Translations under genes and position numbers: made by a program
DNA from: a virus
Lineage: Duplodnaviria > Heunggongvirae > Uroviricota > Caudoviricetes
Virus record (IMG/VR): IMGVR_UViG_2563366922_000008
Location: 1-37,816 of that record
Length of the DNA stretch: 37,816 nt
Reading direction: 5' to 3' (one strand)
The notes under the pieces: model-generated
Databases searched by the model: none
The model's input: the letters and a program-made list of their open reading frames with translations, nothing else
What the model was told of the DNA's origin: nothing
Shown: one piece after another, positions 1 to 8,951 of the stretch
How the letters are laid out: every line of letters starts with the position of its first letter
Position numbering within the stretch: the first letter of the stretch is position 1

Positions 1-117
1 ATGATTCTGAACCAGCCTGGTGCACGGCTGGGACGGAAGTCGCTGTCGTTCTCAAAATCGGTGGAGCTGCATGACAAAGTCATCGGGCATTATCTGAATA
101 TAAAACACTATCAGTAA
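1..117 (+). CDS. Possible 3' end of a gene truncated by the window edge (38 codons then TAA)
   Basis: Open frame from position 1 to stop at 115-117, convergent with the minus-strand gene ending at 111; no recognisable motif, could be non-coding. Confidence 0.2.
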
Positions 118-317
118 GTTGGAGTCATTACCGACAATGCGCAGGAATCACGAAACTCGTTCAGATCAGGCTTATTACCATCGACTTTAACGGCAGTATT
201 TGGCTTAAAATAAAAACCAGCGCCCCACCCGTTACCGCGCACCTCAATAATGGCAATGCTGTTAATTCCTTTAACCTCTCCACCGTCAAATTTGAAAGCA
301 CCGCTTTCTGTTTTCAT
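111..317 (-). CDS. Hypothetical 68-aa protein downstream of tailspike
   Basis: [20 protein letters not shown]...; ATG at 317 sits 9 nt after GGAGA and 1 nt after the stop of the upstream 61-aa gene (translational coupling); longer alternative starts at 326/344/356 exist. Confidence 0.4.
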
Positions 318-318
318 T

Positions 319-504
319 TTAATCATTCTCCGTAACAGGTTCATTGTGAGCAGCATTTAGTACTCGCTGGAGTGGCTGGTCATTTTCGCGATCTAATTCA
401 GCCTGTAATGCATTCATTGAAGAATTAAAAGCAGGAACTTCATGACCGCTAAGATTTACGCGAAGCATAAACTGCATGATATTTTGAATAGTTTGCTTAT
501 CCAT
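319..504 (-). CDS. Hypothetical 61-aa protein immediately downstream of tailspike
   Basis: ORF MDKQTIQNIMQFMLRVNLSGHEVP...; ATG at 504 preceded by AGGA; starts 12 nt after tailspike stop. Confidence 0.4.
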   Translation of the reverse strand: MDKQTIQNIMQFMLRVNLSGHEVPAFNSSMNALQAELDRENDQPLQRVLNAAHNEPVTEND

Positions 505-516
505 TTTATTGTCCTG

Positions 517-1953
517 TTAAGTTAAACCAATTAATCCATGCCCGGTTGAAGCATGTAAGTCCTGAATTAATGCTGCAACTACCTTTGCTAAATCTTCGTG
601 AGTTATTGTTCCAGAGTTAAATGCTGCTCGGGATACGGTGCCGGTTGGCGATCCCCATCCCGTCCTCCTCTCTGAAATAACTTGATTGCCATTAAGTCGT
701 ATTCTTAAGTTGTTGAAGTTAGCCCAGTTCTCAGCCCTGTTGAAACTCAAATGTGTTGTATTTGCCGGGCCCGTTCCTACCGTAATTCGTTGATTGTCGC
801 CCATCAAAATTGCGCAGTTGTTTGAAAATCTAGCTTCAGAAAATGAAATTCCACTCCTAAAATAATTTGTTCTAAATCTAATGCCGTTTGCAGCTCCAGA
901 TGATAGAGATCCCTCAAGTCTGATGTATTCGCCATTACCTACCTCGGTTAGTTCCTCTGTTGGAGTGGAAATAGAATTACCTCTAAACAACATTCCTGTC
1001 CAGATATAACCATTTGGAGCTTCACTCCCTCTTCCGATGGTAATCATCTGTGTTACTGGATTGCTTTTATCCTGAGTTACACATACCAACCCTCTTACAG
1101 ATCCTTGCAGTGCATTCTCCATCCATCCTTTATCGGGACCTCGATTATTCAGATTAAATTCATGTGCAATAGTGCTAATCGCTCCATTCTGCACTGCATC
1201 TCCTAATACTGCACCATATGACCACCCCCCCCATGTTTCGGCTTGCGGATTTCTTGATTCTCCACGCATGTGGTGACCAATTGAATGCCCATTCCCTCCC
1301 TCATGCTTAGCAACACTTGTAGTTGTGCATGTATATGCACTTCCTGACACCTTGCGCAAAGAGTTATAAATTACCCCCTGATCCCATCGTTTGATGCCGT
1401 CATCCCTAGTTGCAGAACTAATTTTTTCCAGCCAAATAATGGGATCTGGAATTGGTGTTTCTGGTATGGAGAATCTCTGTCGTGTAGCATTTTTATATAT
1501 GATAGTTTCATTGTTATAAATATTGTCACCAGCTGCATCTGAACCAGTCCATCCTGAGCCAGCATAAAAATTCTTAAGTCCATCACCAGACTGTCCAGTC
1601 AAAACTACTCTTAACTGATCCGGGTCATACTTCAGCACATTTGGGAATTTGAACTGCTGTGCACCATACGCATCATAAACAGCCATAGAATGGCCTTGCT
1701 CAGTTACGAATTTGGCAATCTGTCCGTTATATACAGGGTAACCAGCGGCGTTAATGATGATTGGTTGCGAAACGGGAACATGAGAGCCGTCTTCGTTCTC
1801 TACATAAACCTGAATCTGGTTTTCAGGATTTACTGGGTCAGTGTCAATTTTACCGATATAAATCTTTCCATTAGCTACGGCTTTAAAAGAACGAGCCATA
1901 GTGAAGAGTTGCGAAGGCATGCTGACTACAACATTGGCTGTAATGTCTGTCAT
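517..1953 (-). CDS. Tailspike / tail fiber protein with P22 gp9-type N-terminal head-binding domain and a divergent receptor-binding region
   Basis: 478-aa ORF; N-terminus [11 protein letters not shown]...[33 protein letters not shown]...NVLKYDPDQ matches the P22 tailspike head-binding domain as I recall it; rest unlike the P22 endorhamnosidase; GGAG 8 nt upstream of ATG. Confidence 0.8.
1225..1232 (-). repeat. Homopolymeric G8 tract (C8 on plus strand) inside tailspike coding sequence
   Basis: Plus strand ...accaCCCCCCCCatg...; encodes W-G-G-W (tgg ggg ggg tgg) in the tailspike frame. Confidence 0.9.
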
Positions 1954-2021
1954 TTAATTTGCTCCAGATACAAGGAATCGCCGCAGCATTGCCACAGTGA
2001 TGCATTATTAATCAAACAAAG

Positions 2022-2036
2022 AGACCACTGTGGTCT
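2022..2036. promoter_or_regulatory. 15-bp palindrome AGACCACTGTGGTCT in mnt-tailspike intergenic region; candidate Mnt operator
   Basis: Perfect 7-bp inverted arms around a central T, about 65 bp upstream of mnt; resembles the symmetric P22 mnt operator in style (recalled, not verified). Confidence 0.35.
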
Positions 2037-2099
2037 TATTGAGGATGCAACCAGCAGATAATAAGATGCCGATCCACTCACAAAAGCGAGGCATCAAGA

Positions 2100-2351
2100 A
2101 TGGGAAGAGATGACCCGCAATTTAATCTGCGGCTACCTTACGAATTAAAGGAAAAACTAAAACAGCGAGCCAAATCCAATGGCCGCTCTCTTAATTCAGA
2201 ATTAGTTCAGATAGTTACTGATGCTGTATCAAAGCCATCCAAAATTTCAGGCTATCGAGACGATGCGGAACGCATCGCTGATGAGCAGTCCGAACTTGTT
2301 AAGAAGATGGTGTTTGATACGCTGAAGGATTTGTACAAAAAACCCACCTGA
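2100..2351 (+). CDS. mnt: Mnt repressor (ribbon-helix-helix, P22 immI-type)
   Basis: 83-aa ORF MGRDDPQFNLRLPYELKEKLKQRAKSNGRSLNSELVQIVTDAVSKPS...ADEQSELVKKMVFDTLKDLYKK, matching P22 Mnt in length and sequence as recalled. Confidence 0.85.
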   Translation: MGRDDPQFNLRLPYELKEKLKQRAKSNGRSLNSELVQIVTDAVSKPSKISGYRDDAERIADEQSELVKKMVFDTLKDLYKKPT

Positions 2352-2367
2352 CGGTGGGTTAATTTTT
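2341..2367 (+). terminator. Rho-independent terminator-like hairpin at mnt 3' end
   Basis: aacccacc-tgac-ggtgggtt followed by aattttt; mnt stop codon lies in the loop. Confidence 0.5.
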
Positions 2368-2450
2368 GCATTTACCTGGGCCATATTGACTACTTATAAA
2401 ATGAGATCAATATTTAATCGCCCAATAACGGGTGTATGTTGAGGTATATC

Positions 2451-2630
2451 ATGGCGAAAAAACCAGGTGAAAACACAGGAAAAAACGGCGGAATATACCA
2501 AGAAGTTGGCCCGCGCGGCGGTAAGAAAGACAATTTTGCCACCGTCAAGGACAACGAAAGGCTTCCACCAACAACAAAGCCAGGTCATGGCTGGGTATTA
2601 GATAAGCGAACTCCAGACAGCAAAAAGTAA
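2451..2630 (+). CDS. Hypothetical small basic Gly/Lys-rich protein (59 aa)
   Basis: ATG at 2451 with GAGGT 5 nt upstream; MAKKPGENTGKNGGIYQEVGPRGGKKDNFATVKDNERLPPTTKPGHGWVLDKRTPDSKK; followed by a terminator hairpin; table ORF starts at an upstream TTG. Confidence 0.45.
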   Translation: MAKKPGENTGKNGGIYQEVGPRGGKKDNFATVKDNERLPPTTKPGHGWVLDKRTPDSKK

Positions 2631-2658: not shown

Positions 2659-3009
2659 GATATGTCGCTCGCAGAACTCAACAAGCCTGCTCATTAAGTA
2701 GCAGTAAGTCTCGTTGGCTCTTCCTGGTTCAACATCAACACCGACCCTTGAGCAGATATCGAATGCCATGTGAGCGCACTCATGGGCAATAGTAGATAGT
2801 TTGCCATTGAACACGCCTATCACATGCAAAACACCATTCTCGCTACTCATTGTATGAGACGCTCCGTTGGCGTCCGAGTCATGCACGTCAACGCCAAGTT
2901 TTTGATGCAGGCGTTGCCATTCTGGAAAGTCTCTACAAAACACAATTGTACCGCTCTCAAAGAGCGGTACTAGCATCTTTGGTACGTTTCCAATGTTAAC
3001 TTTTTTCAT
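2644..3009 (-). CDS. Hypothetical 121-aa protein with HExxH motif (possible small zinc-metallopeptidase-like protein)
   Basis: ORF MKKVNIGNVPKMLVPLFESG...STIAHECAHMAFDICSRVG...; ATG at 3009 with AGGA 5 nt upstream; HECAH is a candidate zincin motif; no family assigned. Confidence 0.5.
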   Translation of the reverse strand: MKKVNIGNVPKMLVPLFESGTIVFCRDFPEWQRLHQKLGVDVHDSDANGASHTMSSENGVLHVIGVFNGKLSTIAHECAHMAFDICSRVGVDVEPGRANETYCYLMSRLVEFCERHIKKPE

Positions 3010-3043
3010 GGTATCCTGCGCAAAACTAAGGAGAGTTAATTAT

Positions 3044-3529
3044 ATGAAAAAATCACTGTTAATTATCCCGCTTCTGCTGGCTGGGTGCGCAAAAGTAAGC
3101 GACTATCAGGCAAGTTGCGAGCAACGCTATCCAAAGCTTAGCGATATGGCTAATTGCCTTGATGCCAGCTTGAAGAACGACTCTCGCATGGCATCAGCAC
3201 CAACACCTAAGCTGTATGTCCTTGCTGCGAAGATGCTCGGGCAAGGTGTCGATGAAGGCAAGATAAGTGACACACAGGCAAGACTTGAACTTCAGAATCT
3301 TTATGTTCAATTACAAAGCCAAGAACAAGCCCAACAAATAGCGCAAAGCCAAGCATTCCAGCAGGCTTTATTGAATTATCAGGCTGTAAACACAATGCAA
3401 GCGATCGAGCAAAAAGCGCGCCAGCCTGTTATAACTCAACCTTACCCAACACGCGTTGACACATATACAAACTGCAATTCAGGATTTGGAAACACGGTAA
3501 CATGCAACAGTAGCAGTAATATCAGGTAG
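3044..3529 (+). CDS. Putative lipoprotein (161 aa) with Gln-rich helical region, in the P22 sieA slot
   Basis: ATG at 3044 with AAGGAGAG upstream; N-terminus MKKSLLIIPLLLAGCAK has signal peptide plus lipobox LAGC; Q-rich middle (QLQSQEQAQQIAQSQAFQQALLNYQ); Cys-containing C-terminus. Confidence 0.6.
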   Translation: MKKSLLIIPLLLAGCAKVSDYQASCEQRYPKLSDMANCLDASLKNDSRMASAPTPKLYVLAAKMLGQGVDEGKISDTQARLELQNLYVQLQSQEQAQQIAQSQAFQQALLNYQAVNTMQAIEQKARQPVITQPYPTRVDTYTNCNSGFGNTVTCNSSSNIR

Positions 3530-7544: not shown

Positions 7545-7998
7545 TCTTTAGCTCCTCGTATTTTGAGCGCGGTAACTGATAAATCGTGATGCCTACAGGC
7601 TTTCCATTGCTGGTATAAGCATCATCAAGGTGACCAACACGGGTAGCGCCAAGCAAACGGATAATTGACCGTCCGTATTTGGTGGTGTCAGGAACCATGG
7701 TGATGCTGTTAAGGAATGGTGAGTTTTCGAGAAGCCATTTGCAGAATAATCGATGCCCTTGCAGTGCATATTCACCACGGAATCCGGGGTCGTACACCGC
7801 ATGGCATTCCACAACGCTATGCCAGAAGTTACGCACTTCATGAACGCCAGACAGCACTAATCCTTCGTAGATGCCGAGATATACCGCATCAGGCTTGATG
7901 TAGTATTTATCTCCACTGTCTACGATATTTCCCGTGTTTGCCGGGTTGTTGAGGAATTCTGCAAGCTTCACCGGATTATCGATGAGCTTTATTTCCAT
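7519..7998 (-). CDS. gp14-like virion assembly protein (assigned by position)
   Basis: 159-aa [26 protein letters not shown]... between needle and gp7 genes; ATG at 7998 overlaps needle stop (table start 8001 is GTG). Confidence 0.65.
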   Translation of the reverse strand: MEIKLIDNPVKLAEFLNNPANTGNIVDSGDKYYIKPDAVYLGIYEGLVLSGVHEVRNFWHSVVECHAVYDPGFRGEYALQGHRLFCKWLLENSPFLNSITMVPDTTKYGRSIIRLLGATRVGHLDDAYTSNGKPVGITIYQLPRSKYEELKNVNFPDCQ

Positions 7999-8951
7999 CA
8001 CTGCTCCGCAATGATTTTGATGGTTGTGGCAGTAAACGCCGCACCATTTGACTGAATGGTTAACGTGCTGCCATTTGTGGCAAGAAAGCCGTCTTTATCC
8101 ACGCTGAAGAACGTAGCTAACAGGATGTTGTCGGTTGTTGTCGCCGCATTACGACTGCTAACCAACGTATCAGGAACAGAACCGGAAAAAGTTAGCTGCA
8201 TTGACCTGTTGGCGGTTCCACTGGGCCACGTCCCGACAATTGATAGCTTGAAGAACAATGTTTTGTTCTCGTTGAACACAACCATCTTGTTGTTAACGGT
8301 GTCGAAGAATGGTGCCAACGTGCCGGATGACGGCGTGAGCGTTTTCAGCAGGCTAACAAGGTTGGTCGGCGCTATCGGGATGGTTACAGATACTCCTGAG
8401 TAAACAACCTCTGATTTCTTGCGCGTGATGGCATACTCAAGCGCAGATATTCTTGTTGAGTGATCACCAACTGTGCTTTGTAGCGTCGAAATACTTCCCT
8501 CTGCCGCTGTGAGCCTGGTATCAAGTGCGTCGATATCGGTTGTATTCTGAGTTATTCGCGCATCATGGTTTGCTAACTCAGATTCATTGGCAGCAATTCG
8601 CGTCTCGTGATCAGCCAGGTCTGTTTCGGCAGCCGTAATCCTTGTTTCATGATCTGCAAGAGTGCTTTCCGCTGCTGCGATTCTATGTTCATGATTGACG
8701 AGAGTTGCTTCAGCAGCAGCAATTCTGGATTCATGGTCTGCAAGGGTGACATCCTGCTCATCATTCTTCACCTGTGCATCATAAGCCCCCTTCCCTGCTT
8801 CGTTGGCCTTGTTAGCCACGTTACCAACATCAGTGCCCTGTGCGATAACGTACAGCAGATATGACTGCGAGAAGATATTGCGTGGAAGGACTGATGTGTC
8901 GAGTCGTGTAGCCTGAATGATTACCGGCTCATTGAGATTCGAATCAGCCAT
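7998..8951 (-). CDS. Tail needle protein, P22 gp26-like N-terminus with extended C-terminal domain
   Basis: 317-aa ORF; N-terminus [43 protein letters not shown] matches P22 gp26 as recalled; central tandem 14-residue repeats; about 85 aa longer than P22 gp26. Confidence 0.8.
8545..8745 (-). repeat. In-frame tandem repeats (about 42 bp units) encoding ADHE(S/T)RI(A/T)AAE.. repeats of the needle coiled coil
   Basis: Four to five consecutive near-identical 14-aa units ([15 protein letters not shown] / [14 protein letters not shown] / [14 protein letters not shown] / [14 protein letters not shown]) visible in translation and DNA; coordinates approximate. Confidence 0.6.

Follow-up and report, generated by a model that had tools for sequence, protein, structure and literature searches.

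A chimeric P22-type tailspike with a C-terminal module of an unannotated family in an Escherichia coli prophage

What has taken the place of the body in a P22-like tailspike that has the usual anchor and measures 478 aa in all, and by which route did it come there? We addressed this question in a window of 37,816 nucleotides (the whole stretch of DNA analysed, positions 1 to 37,816 of the IMG/VR record IMGVR_UViG_2563366922_000008), where the intact spike ORF occupies positions 517..1953 of the minus strand and starts with ATG. The reading that we consider probable is that of a P22-like prophage tailspike whose body has been replaced at the hinge by an exchangeable receptor-binding module, ending in a needle-type cap and forming a cassette with a small downstream gene, gene a. 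Tailspike bodies decide which bacteria can be attacked and provide polysaccharide-degrading enzymes for use in typing and therapy; from its position, the module would set the host range, as proposed in the initial annotation of the locus.

Anchored mosaic tailspikes with an exchangeable body are textbook knowledge for P22-like phages. The exchange of receptor-binding modules between Kaguna- and Lederbergviruses has also been analysed (PMC10408124), and the general interpretation is consequently not new. What is new, as far as our searches reach, is the unannotated module family, which in our predictions does not model as a beta-helix enzyme, the presence on the spike of a tail-needle-type tip while the needle of the same prophage has an HS1/Sf6 knob, and the tight linkage of the module to the small genes a, b and c.

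The prophage and its chimeric tailspike

Apart from the spike gene, the window is made up of a P22-like prophage. The genes for terminase, portal, scaffold, coat, gp10, needle and ejection proteins lie on the same strand, and over the portal-to-ejection-protein genes the window is 95–96% identical to P22-like phages. The spike gene stands at the end of the P22-like late operon, after the ejection-protein genes and the immI-type region, and genes for Arc-family and DNA transfer proteins lie upstream. Identical copies are found at argW/intS beside yfdC in E. coli chromosomes; in one such prophage (locus L001) an IS1 transposase remnant and a short ORF are followed by intS/argW. The window itself starts inside an IS1 end (1..131), which truncates gene b, described below. 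This IS1 damage downstream of the spike indicates that the right arm of the prophage is degraded, and the present copy may no longer make virions. Two plus-strand ORFs were noticed in the same part of the window. One (2993..3529), between the ejection-protein gene and the spike, has an internal lipoprotein-type signal, MKKSLLIIPLLLAGC, and might serve surface exclusion; the other (2436..2630) encodes a basic product of 64 aa rich in glycine and lysine.

The spike gene can be divided as follows:

1615..1953, minus strand: head-binding domain (virion anchor), codons 1–113, delimited by PF09008, the N-termini of PDB structures and DNA identity
1462..1614, minus strand: hinge and variable neck, codons 114–164, where the exchanged module starts, with a remnant G-x-x-G-D-G motif
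706..1461, minus strand: conserved core, codons 165–416, of an unannotated tail-spike/fibre family
520..705, minus strand: C-terminal tip, codons 417–478, ending in HGLIGLT, a gp26 distal-tip homologue by profile comparison

Residues 1–113 cover the Pfam family PF09008 (Head_binding) end to end (E 3.6e-65). The closest solved structure for this part in the PDB is Sf6 gp14 (7sg7, residues 1–120, E 3.2e-65), and the P22 tailspike aligns over residues 1–116 (PDB, E about 1e-49). By homology, then, the anchor docks the spike on the tail as it does in P22 and Sf6, which bears out the earlier assignment of residues 1 to about 115 to a P22-type docking domain. At the DNA level, 26 P22-like phage records, including HK620, Sf6, CUS-3 and APC_JM3.2, match nucleotides 1–339/351 of the gene alone, with 86–93% identity; the anchor is the sole part of the spike that shares DNA identity with P22-like tailspike genes. 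When the first 25 kb of the window were compared with phage genomes, the collinear P22-like match began at window 1613–1615, which corresponds to codon 113/114.

The spike shares with the tailspikes of P22, Sf6, HK620 and CUS-3 the PF09008 anchor (up to 93% DNA identity), the gene position, the hinge and the role of sole tailspike. In contrast, likeness to the P22, Sf6 and HK620 proteins and genes ends at codon 113–117, and the spike is 145–190 residues shorter than the solved chains of Sf6 (623 aa) and P22 (666–667 aa); other head-binding relatives are of nearly equal length (475–484 aa). No tailspike-body match was obtained beyond residue ~136 in PDB, Pfam, NCBIfam or PHROG, and the 25 PHROG families listed of the 30 matched are confined to residues 1 to ~148. 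Two further statements of the initial annotation, that the remaining ~360 residues do not resemble the P22 endorhamnosidase and that the protein is much shorter than P22-family spikes, therefore hold, and none of the searches made returned full-length homology to a characterised tailspike.

The spike is thus confirmed, far beyond chance, as a chimera in which a P22-type head-binding domain is joined to a C-terminal module that is unrelated to it and shorter. That the receptor-binding part has been swapped is supported by two comparisons. The same module, with 64–94% amino acid identity, sits on a different anchor, PF18668 (Tail_spike_N), in Kagunavirus-type siphophages. In strain CFSAN061770 (spike at L003 3653–5089, compared with window 517..1953) the module is 99.6% identical in DNA to that of the window, with dS = 0, whereas the anchor is a diverged allele with dS = 0.37, and this difference shows that modules were recently exchanged at the hinge. 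This hinge, which follows the head-binding domain, is a genuine recombination point, and it is here that the original body would have been replaced by recombination. The upstream immunity region of CFSAN061770 is also unlike that of the window (Arc, Arc, antirepressor). The initial annotation recognised the chimera but missed the minus-strand orientation of the gene, the needle-tip homology, the wider family and the small downstream gene.

Neck, core and tip of the module

Residues 114–478 belong to an unannotated family. They match 0 Pfam families at E<=1 and no NCBIfam model, a single-sequence search of the PDB gave no solved relative, and their sole PHROG match, to a 'tail needle protein', is weak and spans 31 residues; the core is covered by no Pfam, NCBIfam or PHROG model. 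The family is nonetheless a real one. A word-indexed search of 5.8 billion proteins returned 14, with an N-terminus of either PF09008 or PF18668, the anchor type of CBA120 TSP1/Kagunavirus, and phmmer against 1.84 billion cluster representatives gave 1244 matches at E<=1e-3 (130 at E<=1e-10 and 55 at E<=1e-30). A profile of 120 sequences run against the 5.8-billion-protein set added no new or named members.

The distribution of the family is wide. Kagunavirus LM02P1 carries the module with 64% identity over 99% of its length; the Phapecoctavirus myoviruses nieznany and tuntematon and the 150-kb phage ECML-183-2 carry it at 28%, and a GDSL 'lipolytic protein' of Aeromonas phage AsC4_1 has its last 63 residues only. 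Carriers make up 6 of 5426 complete E. coli genomes. A 43%-identical copy in a Georgenia (Actinomycetota) genome was the sole locus in the scan of GTDB genomes, and the tail module of a 42.8-kb metagenomic contig ends with a 49%-identical copy. The N-terminal parts of 82 relatives include Tail_spike_N (11), Head_binding (4), tail-collar, T7 tail fibre, Mtd_N and collagen repeats. The occurrence of the module on differing anchors in sipho-, podo- and myoviruses indicates a horizontally exchanged receptor-binding cassette, and the module is thus a portable C-terminal unit fitted to many anchors. We propose that residues 114–478 would be a self-contained receptor-binding module exchanged by phages of all three tail types. 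It is used by at least six kinds of phage.

Alignments and column statistics divide the module into the neck, core and tip listed above. Homology to proteins with other anchor types starts within the neck (alignment A1). The string GQSGDG occupies positions G120–G125, of which G120, G123 and G125 are invariant in a 15-sequence alignment. Distant relatives show a short match to PF12708 (pectate-lyase-like) that covers the start of this profile and begins at the aligned GDG motif, and the window spike is without some 22 residues that follow the G-x-x-G-D-G motif; GQSGDG can therefore be seen as the remnant of a recognisable motif. Within the core, R230 and E265 are invariant in 82 family sequences, and P171, K177, Y196, K201, H228, W244, Y246 and D295 are conserved in at least 90% of them. 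E265 is part of IAHEF. GQSGDG and IAHEF, which the initial annotation had given as weak motif-like strings only, thus both lie in conserved columns.

The tip is related by sequence to the distal tip of the P22/HK620 tail needle gp26. The 120-sequence profile matches the gp26 structures 2poh, 3c9i, 4zkp, 4lin, 5bu5 and 5bu8 (E 9e-10 to 1.4e-8), with gp26 residues 139–232 aligned to spike residues ~400–478, including TGW..TGT and the terminal HGLI; the window sequence alone gives a marginal E of 0.046. Many phmmer matches span only positions 298–363 of the 365-residue query and lie at the C-terminus of otherwise different proteins, which makes the tip an independent unit. The distal part of gp26 is, in published structures, a triple beta-helix followed by a returning helix. 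P22-like tailspikes are homotrimers, six to a virion. A tip of the gp26 type leads one to expect a trimer here too, with chains that intertwine at the C-terminus at the least, and the tip is a probable trimerisation cap; the module as a whole would then form an elongated trimer closed by a gp26-type C-terminal cap. The spike differs from the gp26 needle in that it has neither the gp10-binding N-terminal plug nor the long trimeric coiled coil.

We also considered that the tip had been copied from the needle of the same prophage. That needle (window 7998..8951, minus strand, 317 aa) has a TNF-like knob of the HS1/Sf6 type (4k6b, E 8e-89), as opposed to the P22-type tip of the spike, and shows no similarity to the spike; this origin was rejected. 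A relative of 782 aa (L036, IMGVR_UViG_3300028480_000005, ORF ending at 2492) has a tip that ends in AAMRAHGLIAT and is nearer than the window tip to the gp26 ending (DALRAHGLI); judged by this ending, it may bridge spike tips and needle tips.

Gene status, fold and activity

In RefSeq, PGAP labels identical copies of the spike 'incomplete; missing C-terminus' (CP063492 and CP023142; L001 5653–7089 and L003 3653–5089), and these labels, together with the IS1 debris in the neighbouring region, would fit a decayed, truncated tailspike. We regard this as very improbable. The ORF is intact, with 478 aa, in both genomes; the annotated 'partial' feature ends where the similarity to known tailspikes ends and not at a stop codon; and full-length homologues are present in complete Kagunavirus-type genomes. 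Between the window and a 74%-identical relative, dN/dS is 0.22 for codons 114–478 (0.08 for the anchor codons), which shows purifying selection on the module, and the conserved tip reaches the last residues. Intact ORFs and dN/dS led us to reject the pseudogene reading; the mislabelling likely arises because the remainder of the protein is covered by no model, so that RefSeq takes intact copies for truncated pseudogenes.

The fold of the core was approached by prediction. An AlphaFold run on 15 sequences (pLDDT 45) was replaced by one on 120 sequences, which gave a monomer with a pLDDT of 83.5 and a pTM of 0.71, the pLDDT exceeding 90 from construct residue 190 onward. According to DSSP, this model has no strands at construct residues 49–274 and two strands of 3 residues before them. 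Structure comparison brought up no beta-helix enzyme; the gp26 needle-tip chains (2poh, 3c9i, 5bu5) score best, together with further fibre-like viral models. The model is therefore not a normal single-chain beta-helix, for which matches to dozens of enzymes would be expected, and in this it differs from P22-like tailspikes with their beta-helix enzyme fold. An extended chain predicted with high confidence resembles a monomer taken from an intertwined trimer, and the small number of intrachain strands in the model suggests the same; for the core itself, we hold an intertwined trimer to be about evenly balanced against other folds. 'Triple helix' depolymerases are a recognised third fold class that single-chain predictors handle poorly (PMC11326577); in this class three chains wind into a single helix, and the active sites lie between them. 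The streptococcal HylP (6wxa), a member of this class, is likewise elongated and fibre-like with little intrachain pairing, but it has no sequence similarity to the spike, and its Foldseek match, made with the monomer model only, is non-significant (E 7).

Alternatively, the core could be an ordinary single-chain right-handed beta-helix depolymerase, shorter than usual and mis-modelled by AlphaFold. The sequence contains repeated short strands of alternating hydrophobicity with G/N turns between them, and its invariant acidic and basic residues are of a kind compatible with a glycosidase or lyase. In ten of the 82 relatives the stretch immediately before the core matches the start of PF12708, and the family profile gives weak matches to beta-helix enzymes in their N-terminal cap (GH55 5m5z, E 2.6e-8; pectin lyase 7chu; AlgE4 2pyg). 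These PF12708 matches cover the first 25–45 profile positions only. A match above the gathering score across the helix was not obtained for the window module (0 Pfam families), nor did the searches reveal homology of the body to the single-chain right-handed parallel beta-helix glycanases of P22, Sf6 and HK620. We consider a conventional, mis-modelled beta-helix unlikely. Depolymerase predictors trained on beta-helices would probably miss the module.

Whatever its fold, the core residues K177, H228, R230, W244, Y246, E265 and D295 most likely form a sugar-binding site, possibly a catalytic one. The module belongs to a family of which no member is characterised, and it is from its position that it may bind or cleave a glycan. 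In the P22-like and Kagunavirus settings the module is part of the only tailspike and would make the first contact with the cell surface; the characterised spikes of both groups are described as enzymatic (PMC11990801). Conservation of R, E, H, K, D, W and Y extends from Georgenia to E. coli hosts, and such conservation across distant hosts argues for one shared sugar-binding or catalytic centre in variable surroundings. The conserved core would thereby engage a host surface polysaccharide, maybe catalytically, and we lean slightly towards an enzymatic module. A non-enzymatic binding fibre, with the conserved polar residues as contacts of the trimer interface, is a possibility that we take seriously without favouring it. 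The extended, fibre-like model and its best matches to the needle tip and fibre-like viral models are in keeping with it, as are the two different O-antigen types shown by carriers and the homologues in nieznany and tuntematon, isolated on O-antigen-less E. coli K-12. In 2 of the 82 relatives a SASA carbohydrate esterase domain of their own lies upstream of the module, an arrangement equally compatible with a non-catalytic core and with a second activity. Against a mere binding fibre stand the sole-tailspike role, shared with enzymatic spikes, and the invariant R and E with the conserved H, K, D, W and Y, which fit an active or sugar site better than a simple interface.

An attempt to deduce the receptor from the host serotype was abandoned, the same spike being present in strains with unrelated O-antigen clusters. 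Strain EP91A, described as O15:H18 ST69 (PMC13432863), carries the O15 wzx/wzy cluster; this cluster occurs in 100 of 5426 genomes, and no other carrier strain is among the 60 listed. CFSAN061770 and EF5-18-41 have a cluster of the O17/O44/O73/O77/O106 type. The O-antigen clusters of the carriers are located as follows:

L022, 9499–12954
L023, 18037–20645
L025, 6917–9525

EF5-18-41 is also ST69 (PMC8350485), so that descent within one lineage confounds the serotype comparison with EP91A; the mixed O-antigens probably mean that the spike was inherited within the ST69 lineage and that the O-antigen later switched. With two unrelated clusters among the carriers, no receptor can be named.

Companion genes and the travelling cassette

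Three further features of the window lie at or beyond the 3' end of the spike gene:

388..544, minus strand: conserved 3' flank, running from the final 28 nt of the spike gene across the spacer into gene a, of which it includes the 5' two-thirds
319..504, minus strand: gene a, an ORF of 61 aa, 12 nt downstream of the spike
111..317, minus strand: gene b, 68 aa, truncated by the IS1 end at ~131 (74–90 aa elsewhere)

Gene a (52–62 aa) is found 8–26 nt downstream of nearly every family member examined, and its 40 N-terminal residues are almost invariant (M.KQTIQNIMQFMLRVNL.G.EVPAFN..MNALQAEL). It stands directly downstream of a family member in all 7 phage records, in 12 of 13 IMG/VR loci and in every assembly context examined. 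Conversely, tblastn of gene a against a collection of 50,697 phage records returned 7 records, all among the 8 with the module or the tip. Gene a follows the spike in the P22-like prophages L001, L003 and L005–L009, in Kagunavirus-type contigs and in LM02P1; it follows the gpJ-type central fibre in lambdoid prophages (L013, L014, L017 and L018) and is also present in a contig with SU10-type adaptor genes (L019), in Phapecoctavirus nieznany (gp225) and in Aeromonas phage AsC4_1 (ORF21). In each of these settings the protein upstream of gene a is a family member ending in HGL[IFM]. The AsC4_1 protein shares the tip alone with the window spike, which indicates that gene a tracks the tip and not the core. 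Homologues of gene a include:

L013, 3501–3686
L019, 3501–3689
L020, 6995–7153
L021, 4203–4511

The window spike has all the marks of this uncharacterised family, namely a core with R230 and E265, a C-terminus of the HGL[IFM] type and gene a within 8–26 nt.

A dN/dS of 0.20 shows that gene a is under purifying selection; apart from a weak match to phrog_18977 (function unknown), it found no annotation. It could be an assembly helper, a tip-bound virion protein or a passenger in the recombination flank. Lambda Tfa and T4 gp38, whose genes come immediately after tail-fibre genes, serve in fibre assembly or bind the fibre tip. Gene a is similar to these in its distance of 8–26 nt from the spike, in tracking the tip and in moving with the spike, but unlike them it is far smaller and has no likeness to annotated families. 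The gp26 protein of P22 is known to refold unaided, which weakens the case for gene a as a chaperone of the tip. The P22 tailspike gene itself is followed by gtr O-antigen conversion genes, a further difference from the spike of the window, which is followed by gene a.

Homologues of gene b come next after gene a in the loci of lambdoid, SU10-like, Phapecoctavirus and Aeromonas phages; the DNA similarity of the window copy to other loci ends at window 132. In many loci gene b is followed by gene c (~80 aa, with three cysteines), which is missing from the window. Genes b and c, both without annotation, are 58–89% identical across E. coli, Aeromonas and large myovirus genomes, and are located elsewhere as follows:

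L013, 3688–4165
L019, 3691–4166
L021, 4514–4979

The module would thus travel with gene a, and often with b and c, between conserved flanks. In blastn of window 1–2400 against L015–L019, the 3' flank is 76–84% identical in DNA where the spike bodies cannot be aligned as DNA, and we infer that it may provide the downstream homology arm when modules are exchanged. How a whole receptor-binding cassette can pass between unrelated phages is seen from the conserved flanks on its two sides, which is useful for host-range engineering. In the window region 1–2500, terminator-like sites are enriched over shuffled sequences (8 found, 1.7 expected) and promoter-like sites are not (5 found, 5.9 expected); on the gene strand there is no terminator-like site between the spike and gene a. 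The motifs described for lytic phages in the study on Kaguna- and Lederbergviruses are reported there to be absent from Lederbergviruses, and the downstream one is a 20-nt non-coding terminator (PMC10408124). Gene a is not one of these motifs, since they consist of a 44/95-nt anchor motif and the 20-nt terminator; nor is our module among the 14 serogroup-assigned subtypes of that study.

A more far-reaching proposal, which we hold to be doubtful, is that the module represents a distinct class of receptor-binding protein, with an intertwined trimer, a needle-type tip, dedicated small partners (gene a, often b and c) and a new glycan-processing centre at R230/E265. If this were true, the small proteins could form an adhesin or sensor complex bound to the tip, or could act in trans as a folding helper; such a helper would replace the self-cleaving chaperone domains of other triple-helix fibres. 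The needle-like tip and its companion gene provide testable leads on fibre assembly or surface sensing.

In several prophages the a-b-c genes are followed by a conserved gene for a protein of 79 aa (phrog_3893, function unknown) and by one for a UmuD-like protein of 105–116 aa (phrog_3469). The loci of these two genes are:

L013, 4263–4837
L016, 5304–5893
L017, 3986–4542
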